Origin: Mustelus asterias
Taxonomy: Eukaryota
Direction: 5' to 3'
Assembly: GCF_964213995.1 (NCBI RefSeq)
Contig: NC_135804.1
Coordinates: 111,724,001 to 111,788,000, forward strand
DNA length: 64,000 nucleotides
Shown here: positions 8,129 through 57,429 of the stretch, piece after piece
Numbering within the stretch: the stretch's first letter is position 1
How the letters are laid out: every line of letters begins with the position of its first letter
Program-made: the position numbers and the translations under genes
Notes under the pieces: generated by a model
Told to the model about the DNA's origin: nothing
Databases searched by the model: none
Seen by the model: only the letters and a program-made list of their open reading frames with translations

Positions 8129-8427
8129 CACAGTTTGTCATGTTGTATTCCATCTGCTATGTTCTTGCCCACTCACCCAACCTGTCTATATTGCTCTGCG
8201 CATTCTCTTCACTGCTTACTTTTCCACCTAACTTTGTATGACCAACAAACTTGGATATGTTACACTCAGTCCCCTCCTCTAAGTTATCAATATAAATTGC
8301 AAACAGCTGAAGCACAAGTATTTATCTTTCCAGTACCTCACTAGTTACAACCATGGTCCCTTGTATCATGTTGTGAATTACTTTTTGTCCTAATTTCTGA
8401 TTTTAAGTAATTAAGCCTCAGACAATT

Positions 8428-8930
8428 AAGCGGTCACGGACATTCGGCCTCTGACCTTCGGGTAAGCGTTCTCCAAGGCGGCCTTCACGACACACGACAA
8501 CGCAGAGTCGCTGAGCAGAGACTGATAGCCAAGTTCTACACACATGAGGACGGCCTCAACTGGGATCTTGGGTTCATGTCACACTATCTGTAACCCCCAC
8601 GACTTGCCTGGGCTTGCAAAATCTCACTAACTGTCCTGTCTGGAGACAATACACATCTCTTTAACCTGTGCTTAATGCTCTCTCCACTCACATTGTCTGT
8701 ACCTTTAAGACTTGATTAGCTGTAAAGACTCGCATTCCAATCATTATTTTGTAAATTAAGTTTGTGTCTTTATATGCCCTGTTTGTGAACAGATCTCCCA
8801 CTCACCTGACGAAGGAGCAGCGCTCCGAAAGCTAGTGGTGTTTGCTACCAAATAAACCTGTTGGACTTTAACCTGGTGTTGTGAGACTTCTTACTGTGTT
8901 CATCCCAGTCCAATGCCGGCATCTCCACAT
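8428..8930 (+). mobile_element. Penelope-like element 3' fragment (family A)
   Basis: C-terminus of the endonuclease region (RRVAEQRLIAKF.THEDGLN.DLGFM), 3' UTR, hammerhead motif, tail ...CCGGCATCTCCACAT; homologous to 10310-10940. Confidence 0.85.
8801..8840 (+). ncRNA. Minimal type I hammerhead ribozyme motif
   Basis: CAC-CUGACGA-A-GGAGC(agc)GCUCC-GAAA-GC-UA-GUG. Confidence 0.75.
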
Positions 8931-10309
8931 GCTGAATCATACCCAGAAGTGCATCTATTTACTGATCTTCTTACTCACTGTTAAAAATTGCATTTCTAAT
9001 TGTGGCCGTTCCCACAGGGAAAATTCAAGAACCCTTGTGGTAAATTGAGACCAGCCAATACTATACTATCAACAAGCTGAAAATCAAGTTTAATTGTTTT
9101 AGATTCTGGCATTTTATGTTAACGTCAGGCACTATTAATAACAAGAGTTGCTGACACAAGCCTGCTAAATCATAAATAAGCACAATTTATAAAGCTAATG
9201 AAATTGATTTTTGAATTACTTGTAACAATTTGATAAAAGCATTTCTGAATATGAAATATCCTCTCAAAACATTTTAATGAATCATCTGTTAAGCTGTCTA
9301 GTGGGTAAACTCCTGCAACAGAAAAGGCTATTTGCATAAGCAAAACCAGAACTTGTTGAGAATTTATTCCCCAATAAAATGGTCCAAAAGGTGAATCTTC
9401 CTTTTTTAAAAAATTATGTTTCATGCCTCAACACCAGACACAGTCCAAAATGACTTACCCAATAGGATTTTCCACATGCTGTATATTTAAACAAGATAGA
9501 TTTGTTACTGAAAGATAGCACAGAAAAAGCACTTAATGGGTAAATGTGGGATTATGCTGTGCTTGGCAACAAGGTAAAGAACTGAAATGGGAATTTTTAA
9601 AAAATCACAAAGCTGAATAACATCAATTCTTTATCTTTTGGCTATTTCTATCCCAGCTTCCTCTCATTCTGAAATAGTATTAATATCAATTTCAGAGCTC
9701 AGAGAGAGTCAATTCTGTAACTATTTTAGTGGAACAGATAATACACTGCAAACGGTTCCCTTTTAGTGCATCTGCTACGCAGTACTTGATAGGCCAGAAA
9801 TTACTGGAAATGTAACGAGAAGTTTAATGCACACACCATTATTAGTGTGTAAACAACCCAGCAATTTCTGGTGAGGCAGAAATACCGTGTGTGTTGCAAA
9901 TCAAGTGTCTTGTCACAAATTGCTGGATGATTTGCACCGCTACACCATTTACCTCATAAAAATGACAGTGTACCATCAAACTCCAAGCGATTTAAGAAAA
10001 TACTGCCCACATTCACCACAAGAAGTTAATTGCGATACTTCACATTAGTTTAGAAAAGTATCCTCTGAAGCGGAGGTGTTAAAGCTGCAAAGGGATTTGT
10101 ATGTATATTAAAGTTATGCACCGGTTCAAGAAGGCAGCTCACCTTCTTAAGGGTATTTAGGGACAGGCAATAAATGCTAGCCTAGTAAGCAATGCCCACA
10201 TCCTTTCAATTTGTTTTTCAAATGTTGGCTAAGCTTGAAGGACATCATGAGTTAAGAGGTCAGGCTCAAGGAACCAAGAGAAGACCTCAGTCCTGGGATC
10301 CATGGGAAT

Positions 10310-10940
10310 ACAGTAAGAGTTTTAACAACACCAGGTTAAAGTCCAACAGGTTTATTTGGAAGCAAATGCCATTAGCTTTCGGAGCGCTGCTCCTTCGTCA
10401 GATGGAGTGGATATCTGCTCTCAAACAGGGCATACAGAGACACAAAATCAAGTTACAGAATACTGATTAGAATGCGAATCTCTACAGCCAACCAGGTCTT
10501 AAATATACAGACAATGTGAGCGGAGGGAGCATTAAACACAGGTTAAAGAGATGTGTATTGTCTCCAGATAGGACAGCCAGTGAGATTCTGCAAGTCCAGG
10601 AGGCAAGCTGTGGTTACTGATAGTGTGACATGAACCCAAGATTCTGGTTTAGGCCGTCCTCATGTGTGCGGAACTTGGCTATCAGTTTCTGCTCAGCGAC
10701 TCTGCGCTGTCGTGTGTCGTGAAGGCCGCCTTGGAGAACGCTTACCCGAAGATCAGAGGCTGAATGCCCGTGACCACTGAAGTGCTCCCCCACAGGAAGA
10801 GGACAGTCTTGCCTGTCGAGCGGTGTTCATTCATCCGTTGTCGTAGCATCTGCATGGTTTCCCCAATGTACCATGCCTCAGGACATCCTTTCCTGCAGCG
10901 TATCAGGTAGACAACGTTGGCTGACTCTCTGCATCTCCAC
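10310..10940 (-). mobile_element. Penelope-like element (family A) with GIY-YIG remnant and 12-bp TSD
   Basis: ANVVYLIRCRKGCPEAWYIGETMQMLRQRMNEHRS; ATCCATGGGAAT at 10298-10309 and 10941-10952. Confidence 0.9.
10369..10410 (-). ncRNA. Minimal hammerhead ribozyme motif
   Basis: CCAU-CUGACGA-A-GGAGC(agc)GCUCC-GAAA-GC-UA-AUGG. Confidence 0.75.
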
Positions 10941-26758: not shown

Positions 26759-29700
26759 TATCACAGAATCCTACAGTGCCGAAGAGGCCCTTCAGCTCAT
26801 CAAGTCTGCACTGATGCATGAAATGCCCTGACCTGTCCACCTAATCCCACTTGCCAGCAATTGGCCCATAGCCTTGAATGTTATGGTGTGCCAAATACTC
26901 ATCCAGGTACATTTTAAAGGATGTGAGGCATCCCACATCCACCACCCTCTCAGGCAGCGCATTCCAGACTGTCACCACCCTCTGAGTAAAAAGATTTTTC
27001 CTCAAATCCCCCCTAAATCTCCCACCCCTCACTTTTAACTTGTGTCCCCTTGTAACTGATCCTTCAACTAAGGGGAACAGCTGCTCCTTAGCTACCCTGT
27101 CCATGCCCCTCATAATCCTGAACACCTCAACCAGGTCGCCCGTCTTCTCTGCTCCAACGAAAACAACCCAAGCCTATCCTCTCTTCATAACTTAAATGTT
27201 TCATGCCAGGCAGCATCCTGGTGAATCTCCTCTGCACTCCCTCCAGTGCATTCACATCCTTCCTATAATGTGACGACCAGAACTGCACGTAGTACACCAG
27301 CTGTGACCTCACCAAAGTTCTATACAACCTCATCATGACCTCTGCTTTTGTAATGCGTACCCCGATGCACCACCCTATTTACCTGCCTTTCGGCCTTCAG
27401 ACATCTATGGACAAACACGCCCTTTGTTCTTCGGAACTTCCCAGTGTCAGATCTTTCATAGTATACTTCTTTGTCAAATTACTCCTTCCAAAGCGCATCA
27501 CCTCACTTTTCAGGGTTTAATTCCATCTGCCACTATATCTTCCTGTAACCCAAAACACTCAGCCTCATTGTTAACCATCCAGCCAATCTTCATGTCATTG
27601 GCAAACTTACTGATCCTACCCCCCCCCCCCCCCCATAGTCATCTATGTCATTTATATAACTGATGAACTGGTCGCTAGCCTCCAATCACTAAAGCAGCCG
27701 TCTGTCAACACCCTCTGCCTCCTACCACTAAGCCAATTATGTATTCACCTTGTCAGATCACCCTGAATCCCATGTGCATTAGCCTTCTTCGTAAGTCTCC
27801 CATGTGGGCCTTTGTCAAAGGCTTTGCTGAAATCCATGTAAACTACATTAACCGCACTAACCTCATCCACACACTTGGTTACATGCTCAAAAAATTCAAT
27901 CAAATTTGTTAGGCCTCCCTTTGACAATCCCTGACTATCCCTGATCAAACCTTGCCTCTCCAAATGGAGATGGATTCTCTCCTTCAGAATCTTTTCCAGT
28001 AGTTTCCCAACCACACGCGAGATTCACTGGTCTGTAGTTCCCTGGCTTGTCTCTACAACCTTCTTAAATAGTGCGGCCACATTAGCTGTTCTCGAATCCT
28101 CTGGCACCTCCCCGGTAAGAAGTCTCACAACACCAGGTTAAAGTCCAACAGGTTTACTGGTAGCACAAGCCACCAGCTTTCGGAGCCGTGCCCCTTCATC
28201 TCACCTGATGAAGGGGCAGGGCTCCAAAAGCTGGTGGCTTGTGCTACCAAGTAAACCTGTTGGACTTTAACCTGGTGTTGTGAGACTTCTTGCTGTGCTT
28301 ACCCCAGTCCAACGCCGGCATCTCCACATCATGACTTTCCCGGTGGCCAGGGAGGAATTGAAAATTTGGGTAAAGCCCCTGCAACCGCCTCCCTTGCTTC
28401 CCACACAACTTGGGACACAATTCATCCGGACCTGTAGATTTGTCCACTTTTAAGCCCGCCAATACCTTGTCCCTGTGATAATTTTCTCTAGAGCCTCACA
28501 GTCTCTCTTCCCCCCCCCCACCCCGAGTTGCATAGCTAACTCCTCATTCTCATGAGTGAAGACACATGTGTAATATTCATTTAACACCCTACCAATGTCC
28601 TCTGCCTCCACCCACAGATTTCCCCCTTGGTCCCTAATTGGCCCTACTCTTTCCCTGGTTATCCCCTTCCCATTGATAAATTTATAGAATATCTTTGGAT
28701 TTTCCCTACTTTTACCAGCCAGAGCTTTCTCATATCCCCTTTGCTCTCCTAATTGATTTCTTAAGCTCCATCCTGCACTTTCTGTACTCCACTAATGCCT
28801 CCACAGACTTACTCCCCTTATACCTGTTAAAAGCCTCTTGCTTTCATTGTATCCTGAATATCTCTGGTCATCCATGGTTCTCTGGGTTTGTTACAACTAT
28901 TACCCTAAAGGGAACATGTTTGGCCTGTACCCTCCCCATTTCAGCTTTGAACATCCCCCACTGCTCTTCGGTAGATTTCCCCACAAGTAACTTGTTCCAC
29001 TCTACCTTGGCCAGAGCCTGCCTAATTTTGTTCAAATCTACTCTCTCCTAATCCAAAACCTTTTTCTGCAACTTGTCAATTTCTTTGAGCATAACAAATT
29101 TGAATTGAACCATGCTGTGGTCGCTATCACCAACATGCTCCCCTACTAACACATCAACTACCTATCCGGCTTCCCCAGAATTAGGTCCAGCACAGCTCCC
29201 TCCCTTGTTGGATCCTCTACATATTGACCCAAGAAGTTTTCCTGTATACATTTTAAGAACTCTACTCCATCTAAGCCATTAACACGATGGCTATCCCAAT
29301 TAATGTTGGGAAAGTTGAAATCAGCTAATATAATTACCCTCATTATTTTTTACATCCCTCTGCGAATTGCACACATATTTGCTCTTCAATTTCCCGCTGA
29401 CTATCTGGGGGTCTATAATAAACACCTAGCAACGTAGCTGTCCCTTTTTTATTCCTAAGCTCTACCCACAAAGCTTCATTTGATGTCCCCTCCAACATAT
29501 CCTCTCTCCTTACTGCAGTAACTGCCTCCTTAACTAATAATGCAATGCTTTTACCCCCTCTTTTACCCCCTCTTCTGCGTCGCCTGAACATTCTATATCC
29601 CAGGACGTTGAACTGCCAATTCTGCCCCTCACTCAACCACATCTCTATGATGGCTATTATATCATAATTACACATGTCAATCCTCGCCCTTAACTCATCT

Positions 29701-53941: not shown

Positions 53942-54187
53942 CAGGAAGTCACTCTCACCTCCCCTCTTGAGTCCAGTTATTTTGTCAGTGTTTGGCCCAA
54001 TGCTTTAATGAGGTCAGGAGCCACGCGACCCTGGTAGAATCCAAACTGAGCATCAGTGAGCAGCTAATTTCTGTATAAGTACAGCACACTGGCATTGTTG
54101 ACAAAATTTCCATTACTAATGATTGTGAAGAGGCTAATGAGATGGTAATTGACCGGATTAGGTTTGTCCTGCTTTTTGTGGACAGGA

Positions 54188-54441
54188 TGTGGAGATGCCG
54201 GCGTTGGACTGGGGTAAACACAGTAAGAAGTTTAACAACACCAGGTTAAAGTCCAACAGGTTTATTTGGTAGCAAAAGCCACACAAGCTTTCGAGGCTCT
54301 GAGCCCCTTCTTCAGGTGAGTTCTGTTTGTGAACAGAATTCCCACTCACCTGAAGAAGGGGCTCAGAGCCTCGAAAGCTTGTGTGGCTTTTGCTACCAAA
54401 TAAACCTGTTGGACTTTAACCTGGTGTTGTTAAACTTCTTA
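54188..54441 (-). mobile_element. Palindromic mini-PLE (family A): perfect 98-bp inverted arms, 36-bp tail, 14-bp TSD
   Basis: Arms 54224-54321 / 54344-54441; TTTTGTGGACAGGA at 54174-54187 and 54442-54455. Confidence 0.93.
54344..54385 (+). ncRNA. Minimal hammerhead motif (mirror copy on the minus strand at 54280-54321)
   Basis: CAC-CUGAAGA-A-GGGGCU(cag)AGCCUC-GAAA-GC-UU-GUG. Confidence 0.75.
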
Positions 54442-54827
54442 TTTTGTGGACAGGACATACCGCAGCAATCTTCCACTTTGTTGGGTAAATGCCAGAGTTA
54501 AAGGTATGCGAAGCCGTGGTTAAACCACACCTGAAATATTGTATTTAGTTTTGAGCACCACATGTTACAAAGGATATATTGATCTTAGAAAGAGTTTATA
54601 GGTAGATTTATGCGAATTATATCTGGACTCCAAGAGTTAAGCTACAAAGTTATTAAATGATATGAGACAAAGGCAGGTACATCTAGAGAGGATGTCTACT
54701 TGTGTAACAGAACTGACTAGAAAGCTGTTCAACCATGTGAGTTTCAAGTTAAAGTGCAACAAGTTGTCATTGGGGAATAGCTTTGTGCCAATGATGCCAT
54801 ACCAACATTTCATATCAAGGAGAAATC

Positions 54828-55076: not shown

Positions 55077-55216
55077 CACAACAAGAACAGAAAATGCTGG
55101 AAAATCTCAGCAAGTCTGACAGCATCCGCGGGAAAGGAATAGAGCCAACATTTCGAGTCCAGATGAACCTTCGTCAGAGCAAAGAGAATCAGCAGAGATT
55201 TATACAATGACCGGAG

Positions 55217-55252
<36 letters not shown>

Positions 55253-57006
55253 GGAATATAAATGAGGATACTGAAGGCTGATAAGACGCTGTCCATTAAG
55301 TGATCAAAATGTGTGAATGTCAGAACAGACTGCCTGGGGATTATGGCTGAAAGGTTGGGGGGGAAGAAGGGGAGCTGGAATGGGGAAGTGGAAATAAGGA
55401 AGTGAGAAAGAAGGATGATAAAGTGGATGAATGAGATGAAACAAAATGAAATAAAATAAATGGAAATGGGGTGAAGGTGGAAGAGAGAGTTCATGCCCTG
55501 AAGTTGTTGAACTCAATGTTCAGTCTGAAAGGCTGTAAAGCACCCATTCGGAAGATGAGGTGTTGTTCTTCCAGTTTGCGTTGGACATTGCAAAAGGCAA
55601 TGTGGACAGGAGAGCAGGGTGGTGTATTGAAGTGGCAAGCGACAGGAAGGTCTGGGTCCTTCTTGCAGACAGACCAAAGGTGTTCAGCAAAGCGGTCACC
55701 CAGTCTGCGTTTGGTCTCTCCAATGTAAAGTAGACTGCATTGGGAGCAGATTGAAGGAGGTGCATGTGAAGCGCTGCTTCACCTGAAAGGAGTGTTTAGG
55801 ACCTGGGGTGGTGAGCAGGGAGGAGGTAAAGGAACAGGTGTTGCACCTTCTACGATTGCATGGGAAGGTGCCGTGGGCAGGGGGTGAGATGTTGGGTGTG
55901 ATGGAGGAGTGGACAGATGTCCCGGAGAGAATGGTCCCTGCTGAATGCTGACGGGGGGGGTGGTGAGGGGAAGATGTGTTGGATAGGGGCATCATGCTGG
56001 AGTTGGGAGAAATGGTGGAGGATGATCTTTTGAATGCGGAGATTGGTGGGGTGAAAAGTGAGGATAAGGGGGACTCGATCCTGCTTCTGGGAGGGAGAGG
56101 AGGGAGGTGAGAGCAGTGGTCAGGGGGATGGGATGGGTTGGACACAGTTGAGAGCCCTGTCAACCACAGTGAGTGGAAAACCATGATTGAGAAAGAAGGA
56201 AGACATATCGGCAGTGCTATTTTGGCAAGTGGCATCATCAGAACAGGTGCGGTGGAGGCAAAGGAACTGAGAGGATGGGATGGAGTCCTTACAGGATGTG
56301 GGGTGTGAAGAGCTGTAGTCAAGGTAGTTGTGGGAGTCGGGTTTGTAATGGATACTAGTGGACAGTTTATTGCCAGAAATGGAGACGGACAGGTCAAGGA
56401 AGGAAAGAGAAGTGTCAGAGATGAACCATATGAAGGTGATAAGAGAGGTGTAAATTGGAAGCAAAATTGATACATTTTTCCAGGTCCAGACGAGAGCATG
56501 AAGCGGCACCGAAATAGTTGTTGATGTACCGATAAAGGAGTTGTGTGGGAGGGGACTGGAGTAGGACTGGAATGGGGAATGCTCCACATAACCCATAAAA
56601 AGGCAGGCATAACTGGAACCCATGCGGGTGCCCATAGCCACATCTTTTATTTGGAGGAAGTGAGACAAGTTAAAGGAGAAATTGTTGAGAGAGAGAACAA
56701 GTTCAGCCAGACGGAGGAGAGTGGTGGTGGATGGGGATAATTCAGACCTCTGTTCAAGGAAGAAATGAAGGGCTTTGAGGCTAACCTGGTGAGCAATGGA
56801 GTTGCAGAGGGATTGCACATCCATGGTGCGGAGGAGGTGGTTTGGGCCAGGGAACTGGAAGATGTTGATATGGTAAAGGGCATCAGAGGAATCGCGGATA
56901 TAGGTGGGAAGGGACTGGACAAGAGGAGAGAATGGAGTTAAGATAAGAGGAAATGAGTTCGGTGGGGCAGGAACAGGCTGACACGATAGGTCTACCAGGG
57001 CTGTCC
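55077..57006 (-). mobile_element. Penelope-like element (family B), RT plus GIY-YIG remnant, 10-bp TSD
   Basis: TMDVQSL..NNFSFN..FLQIK.VAMGTRMGSSYACLFMGYVE; FPCNRRRCNTC..KQRFTCTS; TGTTATTCAA at 55067-55076 and 57007-57016. Confidence 0.93.
55143..55180 (-). ncRNA. Minimal hammerhead motif in family B PLE end
   Basis: GCU-CUGACGA-AGGUUCAUCUGGACUC-GAAA-UG-UU-GGC. Confidence 0.65.
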
Positions 57007-57429
57007 TGTTATTCAAATCTGAATAAGAAAATGTGGCACGATAGGAACCTGACCAAGAACACCATACCAAATTTATGTAATTCGTGCAATTGTCTACAGT
57101 GACAACACATGCTAAGCAGGGGGAAAAGCTGAGCAGTTTCCAACTTGGCTATCTCAGACATATCTCAGCACCTCTTGGCAGGATAGTGTTACCAACTCAA
57201 GAGGCCTAGGAGCGTACTAATTCCATCAGCATATATTCATTGCTAAACTGACTTGTGTCTGCATTGGTTCGGCCGTAGTCATCGGATGATGACGGCCGAA
57301 TACCCAAAGACTCGCTGCATTATGCAAACTGCATATGAAGTTGGCAGACAAATTCTACACTTTCTCAGCCCACTGACTTCATCTTCTGCAAATGTAGCAG
57401 AGAACGGTGCTCCTGAGCCTCCTGAGGTG

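Follow-up and report, generated by a model that had tools for sequence, protein, structure and literature searches.

We identified a palindromic insertion of 254 bp in the window, the whole stretch of 64,000 nucleotides of Mustelus asterias DNA that was analyzed. The insertion consists of a 36-nt tail (54188-54223) and two exact 98-bp arms (54224-54321 and 54344-54441) separated by a 22-nt spacer that contains a hairpin of 6 bp, and it is bounded by an exact 14-bp direct repeat (54174-54187 and 54442-54455). Each strand carries one CUGAAGA...GAAAGCUU hammerhead core (plus strand, 54350-54380; minus strand, 54315-54285). A first-pass annotation made from the letters alone had described this layout, and all of its parts are exact. 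It had also suggested an extremely truncated Penelope-like element (PLE) insertion with an inverted partial terminal repeat, and this is borne out by identity to the parent element at 136 of 136 positions in arm 1 and 123 of 123 in arm 2. The spacer is parent 3' UTR, thus arm 2 is really 123 nt long and the two arms overlap by 3 nt at their junction, which makes the tail-less arm 25 nt longer than the tail-bearing one. The final two letters of the left repeat match the tail as well, and the target rule of the family suggests a true duplication of 12 bp rather than 14. With parent positions numbered such that 0 is the T of the ORF start codon in tandem parents, the features are:

54169-54173, plus strand: left half of the target site, CTG and 2 nt (family rule TG-NN-[12]-NN-CA)
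54174-54187, plus strand: left target duplication, 14 bp apparent, 54174-54185 by the family rule; single copy at empty sites
54186-54223, minus strand: PLE tail, parent positions -2 to -39
54186-54321, minus strand: arm 1, parent 3' end from -2 to -137, 136/136 identical to natural copy L121
54285-54315, minus strand: minimal type I hammerhead core of arm 1, predicted cut after 54285
54319-54321, no strand: head-to-head junction, 3-nt overlap, unique in the genome
54319-54441, plus strand: arm 2, inverted tail-less copy of parent -162 to -40, including the 22-nt "spacer"
54350-54380, plus strand: minimal type I hammerhead core of arm 2, predicted cut after 54380
54347-54349 with 54381-54383, plus strand: stem I of the arm 2 hammerhead
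54442-54455, plus strand: right target duplication (proper, 54442-54453) and 2 nt of the right half-site
54456-54458, plus strand: right half of the target site (CA)
54050-54500, minus strand: host sequence, by its motif probably a decayed LINE-like reverse transcriptase (RT) frame; it reads through a single copy of the duplication

The window element is therefore the last 136 nt of L121 joined to an inverted stretch of the same 3' region (-162 to -40), and the site that it occupies reads CTG-CT-[12]-GA-CAT. The first-pass annotation had proposed looking for an empty site, and contigs of the related organisms B and E do align from 54442 onward without ever entering the element. Pooled loose ends read as left flank; this pool includes paralogues, since the target is an old LINE-like repeat. 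The filled site is present in both organism A samples that were compared, and the A>G differences seen there are subfamily variants in DNA contigs. The whole insert is predicted to fold as a single hairpin (-206.7 kcal/mol, z -28.9), and none of 200 shuffles was equally stable. An Rfam search of the insert matched no hammerhead family; the miRNA matches it returned lie below the gathering score, are generic hairpins, and were dismissed.

Walking upstream in natural copies leads to an ORF with RT and GIY-YIG motifs, and intact 892-aa parent ORFs are present in the genome. One locus, L323 (C1:21601500-21611300, minus strand), is a complete insertion that reads inverted truncated copy, pLTR, 892-aa ORF, pLTR, tail, with a 12-bp target site duplication (TSD), and its ends and target site are the same as those of the window element. 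The pseudo-LTRs are formed by a partial tandem with a unit of 3021 bp in L323 and L322, with more tandems elsewhere, and the parent start codon is located at the tail end. The ORF carries PF00078, and DKG and VVYLIRC..C..WYIG motifs are visible. A Pfam scan of the parent ORF made no GIY-YIG call, and PF01541 is present in several homologues. The ORF also has a CHSNLCKTC (CX4CxxC) linker. The part of PMC8557442 available defines the Neptune and Nematis clades by a CX2-5CxxC linker before the endonuclease, and the linker here points to a Neptune/Nematis type. Among named homologues, shark proteins come closest (80-93% identical), and a sequence search for a relative of solved structure returned none. 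On sequence grounds the parent of the window unit is identified as an autonomous EN+ Penelope-like element. The family is large, with 24,979 exact matches to the tail-end 37-mer in the 3.68-Gb genome and 59,153 matches to an arm 31-mer.

Insertions of EN+ PLEs with an inverted pLTR and a 30-40-bp tail are known from the portions of PMC8557442 and PMC3846280 available. The present family shares with them a single ORF with RT and C-terminal GIY-YIG, partial tandems, an inverted 5'-truncated copy, a tail on one end, and a TSD. The window copy is an ordinary product of this known class; its layout of an inverted copy plus a tail is not new, whereas the literature that we searched contains no report of the family-level rules described below.

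We sampled copies by their tail alone, taking the first 100 matches on contig C1 and 216 of the 283 matches of four flank-restricted patterns; removal of 5 duplicates left 311 copies. An adjacent inverted arm is present in at least 199 of the 311, a lower bound because many loci extend no further than 1.5 kb. A TSD of at least 8 bp was found in 171 of the 311, with modes at 12 (57 copies), 13 (33) and 14 bp (19). The sequence TG-N16-CA occurs in 78 of 142 sites, compared with 0-4 in shifted controls, and 101 sites have N16 or N17. Among the 57 twelve-bp TSDs, TG is found at -4/-3 in 46 and CA at +3/+4 in 41 (backgrounds about 0.08 each), and both half-sites occur in 36 (P about 1e-65). The resulting rule, TG-NN-[12-bp TSD]-NN-CA, is valid in both samples and for inverted and simple insertions alike. 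If both target ends prime cDNA, the nick in each strand would lie 2 nt 5' of CA(G) and produce 3' overhangs of 12 nt, and the two-fold symmetry of the site suggests that the enzyme is a dimer. The sharp TSD mode of 12-13 bp and the symmetric preference distinguish this family from other EN+ PLEs; in the available text of PMC8557442 and PMC3846280, rotifer TSDs are 8-10 bp and targets are AT-rich or microsatellite. In L031 and L066, and in L037, L010, L028 and L399, independent insertions with differing arm lengths have hit one and the same position in paralogous host repeats, which a sequence preference would predict.

The starting points of the arms are fixed. With the nicks set by the target motif, the start of arm 1 falls between -5 and 0, most often at -2, and that of arm 2 at about -34 to -42, so that the two points are about 37 nt apart; the outer end of the inverted arm falls between -27 and -46 in 160 of 199 copies. 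Tail-less arms also occur by themselves. We examined 222 of them at loci that were not picked as palindromes: 175 have an inverted partner, 12 are single insertions with a TSD (two of these with an inverted tail stub of about 12 nt), 31 are single with no TSD found, and 4 ran off the locus. In L240, L288, L280, L309 and L216 the two arms do not overlap or barely touch. These units and the tail-less singles indicate that neither arm need be copied from the other, and such units cannot be fold-backs.

The hammerhead is of the minimal type I form and shows covariation between subfamilies, in agreement with the "minimal hammerhead" of the first-pass annotation. In its stems 94% of cells are paired, compared with 29-54% in slid controls, and there are 20 double-sided changes against 7 when shuffled, a figure that is inflated by related sequences. 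Position 17 of the NUH site is U in 109, A in 31, C in 7 and G in none of 147 sequences. In the monomer fold the hammerhead is not the minimum-energy state. The stem II loop and its closing pairs change rapidly from one young subfamily to the next, while the sequence beside them hardly varies. It had been proposed that a transcript of either strand would have to choose between the ribozyme fold and the long hairpin. This proposed choice is lopsided toward the hairpin, since in a transcript of either strand the antisense copy precedes the core, and stem II can be forced only at a cost of 34 kcal/mol. The hammerheads in the full window unit are thus predicted to be masked, and folding suggests that the unit is most likely an inert, dead-on-arrival stump.

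The ends of arm 1 are enriched about three-fold at -93 to -101, immediately 3' of where the cut is predicted (-100). The interval was chosen in sample A (11 ends, 3.4 expected), and the independent sample B has 20 ends against 6.5 expected (P 6e-5); a P corrected for the scan is 0.03. Genome-wide, 4,494 palindromes turn in this zone, compared with 1,915 in an equal zone downstream. Offsets of the pile-up in individual subfamilies agree with the predicted cut, with many ambiguous. It is possible that RT stalling at stem I or at a local hairpin, or local microhomology, could produce the same pattern, and on this sequence evidence hammerhead cleavage in vivo has about an even chance of being the cause. 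A second peak of arm 1 ends at -124 to -141 includes the end of the window copy (-137), and self-complementary words are hot spots for joins within it. A TATA/Inr-like pair that lies there in young subfamilies would fit a transcription start as the origin of this peak, but the TATA is not conserved in older ones.

The insertion is a 5'-truncated PLE with an inverted tail-less copy, and we consider it probable that two target-primed reverse transcriptions, one from each nick of a single staggered cut, produced it. An RT/GIY-YIG complex with two-fold symmetry, probably a dimer, would nick both strands 2 nt 5' of CA(G) to give the 12-nt 3' overhangs. Priming from one 3'-OH would begin at the tail end and from the other some 37 nt further upstream, with a single RNA or sister transcripts usually serving as template, and both cDNAs would end at RNA 5' ends (probably including the hammerhead cut) or stop early. 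The cDNA 3' ends would then be fused by host microhomology-mediated end joining, and fill-in would complete the palindrome. Arm 1 would represent the first cDNA and arm 2 the second, and the hammerheads of the insertion derive from the terminal repeat of the parent. Dual priming is supported by the 12-13-bp TSDs, the symmetric site, the fixed starts, the tail-less singles and the non-overlapping arms, by the short overlaps and templated inserts at the palindrome centre (given below), and by the cutting and extension of both strands by the anole PLE protein in vitro (PMC11167929). The rarity of two-tailed units (3 candidates in 199, none with a TSD) speaks against it, given that both strands have the start sites in common in the portion of PMC11167929 available.

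The coupling of inner ends also counts against dual priming, and here self-priming must be weighed, in which the antisense strand folds back and copies itself, and unequal arms are later deletions at the palindrome centre. Arm comparisons use 169 of the 199 inverted copies; the other 30 were dropped for an outer end outside -20 to -62 or an inner end at an alignment artefact (-364). The inner ends lie within 10 nt of each other in 74 of 169 copies, compared with 15 by permutation, and kilobase arms are coupled too. Folding back predicts these many near-perfect palindromes directly, whereas dual priming needs a shared RNA end or a synchronous stop. Joins that recur at self-complementary words fit a fold-back as well, as does the shared haplotype of most arms (identical in 45 of 82, against 3.6% by chance). 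Recurrent subfamily alleles distinguish the two arms in 11 of 109 copies, for example an 18-nt subfamily indel in L130, which favours dual priming; such copies are no more frequent when lengths differ (5 of 50 versus 6 of 59), and later gene conversion could account for them. Private alleles (20 shared by both arms, 178 in one arm) are uninformative because most lie in sparsely sampled old subfamilies. However, a fold-back predicts that the tail-bearing arm is no shorter than its partner. In 66 of 169 copies the tail-less arm exceeds the other by more than 10 nt, in 74 the two are equal and in 29 it is the shorter one, and young copies run opposite to the prediction with 12 longer, 15 equal and 1 shorter, as does the window copy with its 25-nt excess. 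The excess shrinks to 34 versus 24 (P 0.24) when both arms are at least 100 nt, and old copies have none (13 versus 13). Self-priming also cannot yield tail-less single insertions, tail stubs or non-overlapping arms, and it leaves the fixed end at -37 and the symmetric site unexplained. We therefore regard it as unlikely, if still the foremost alternative.

Two other origins appear less likely again. A staggered double-strand break could have been patched by host repair with free cDNA pieces of fixed starts, without target priming. The centre of the palindromes does bear end-joining signatures: junctions overlap by 1-8 nt in 72 of 169 copies, and inserts are locally templated in 21 of 33, compared with 5.3 when shuffled. 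Microhomology together with templated inserts is a signature of polymerase theta. A plain double-strand cut is also compatible with the symmetric site. Such patching is nevertheless improbable, as the outer junctions are clean, with arm 2 beginning directly at the nick in 52 of the 60 cases listed and a mean outer microhomology of only 1.3-1.6 nt, and a relative shows target-primed extension in the available part of PMC11167929. The first-pass annotation had offered a non-autonomous retrozyme- or MITE-like family, amplifying as a palindromic unit, as its other reading, with repeated identical junctions as the sign of such a family. At first sight this is favoured by 1,176 palindromes that turn just 5' of the hammerhead, one junction being common to 12 of the first 50 listed. 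This junction is a perfect palindrome through GAATTC; 13 of 20 such loci fetched have it, on 6 stem II haplotypes and with different outer ends, which indicates that it re-forms independently at a self-complementary hexamer. The window junction itself is not repeated: its 37-mer occurs once in the genome, junction positions vary continuously across the 311 copies, and the inserts grade into one another in size (quartiles 164-508 bp). A MITE-like set of numerous copies that share both their ends and their internal junction was not found, and the window element is a single head-to-head unit and not the head-to-tail tandem array of a retrozyme. Amplification as such a unit is largely refuted already and has very little probability left.

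A stronger form of the dual-priming proposal states that a dimer carries out symmetric double target-primed reverse transcription (CTG-N16-CAG, 12-nt stagger, RNA sites 37 nt apart) and that the pile-up at -100 records germ-line cleavage by PLE minimal hammerheads; this could prove right or wrong with equal probability. If true, a symmetric double-priming rule alone would explain the tail, inverted repeat and TSD of PLEs.

The priming of cDNA by both target strands, with head-to-head joining of the products, is known from L1 twin priming, where the second priming is occasional, uses a variable internal site and gives an inversion with little duplication. The proposed PLE route has both features in common with it, but the second priming is here the majority route, uses a fixed site and usually duplicates a whole arm.

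The closest biochemical precedent is Poseidon of Anolis carolinensis (PAc), whose protein, in the available part of PMC11167929, cuts and extends both strands in vitro and has two RT starts that bound the tail. The present family also has two start sites that bound the tail, would likewise cut and extend both strands, and shares a predicted dimer and a hammerhead upstream of the tail. PAc, by contrast, prefers ATT, whereas the present family prefers TG-N16-CA, has a CX4CxxC linker, and uses its start sites asymmetrically. PMC11167929 looked for RNA ends at the site of hammerhead cleavage and found none, whereas in the present family arm ends pile up beside it. Metazoan PLE minimal type I hammerheads, as far as the accessible text of PMC4209133 describes them, share with ours an extra base before stem II, G10.1-C11.1, a short stem I and a palindromic AGCU replacing stem III; the 6-bp stem II of the present family differs. 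That text also notes opposite-strand hammerhead pairs 100-700 bp apart and low dimer activity. Non-LTR retrozymes are likewise short, non-coding, PLE-derived and equipped with a type I hammerhead in the part of 10.64898/2026.07.22.740005 available. However, they amplify as head-to-tail arrays, and the window element is a head-to-head unit with a unique junction.

The published accounts of PLE inverted repeats differ, in the parts available. Arkhipova et al. 2013 proposed self-priming for the inverted copy (PMC3846280), the anole study describes two internal start sites, and PMC8557442 calls the origin of the inverted repeats and tail undefined. Our literature search turned up no account of a symmetric target in PLEs, of PLE palindromes that arise by dual priming, of arms truncated where the hammerhead cuts, or of fixed arm starts about 37 nt apart and tail-less singles; subscription papers and Repbase/Dfam lay outside its scope and may contain such accounts. 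The family is young and numbers tens of thousands of copies, and its intact ORFs, symmetric target and two defined starts open the formation of PLE inverted repeats to a direct in vitro test on a defined substrate. Priming of both strands at a staggered cut with a sequence preference would set a retroelement apart from LINE-type priming. Perfect palindromes are also seeded by this family in the thousands, with 1,176, 4,494 and 1,915 in three narrow junction windows alone.

Several further observations concern the family and the window. The L322 tandem (C1:47984600-47994400) contains two near-complete open frames of 883 and 912 codons that are 99.7% alike, together with inverted pieces, and is a candidate source locus. 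In the youngest subfamily (L121 and L119, including the window haplotype) the 3' UTR has a 60-bp insertion after the stop codon that resembles a local duplication. Just upstream of the hammerhead, L323 has TATA-like and initiator-like motifs about 28 nt apart (parent -166 to -138), a pair limited to young subfamilies. Elsewhere in the window, a second palindromic insertion of an older subfamily (28115-28335) has a tail and a short TSD and turns inside the hammerhead. Truncated older-subfamily copies, 85-87% identical to the parent, lie at 8423-8930 (plus strand) and 10307-10924 (minus strand, without a tail). Hammerhead-like cores of unrelated sequence near 55177, 18648 and 16771 (minus strand) probably belong to other PLE families, and two long overlapping open frames of 316 and 342 codons occupy 55699-57148 on the minus strand.
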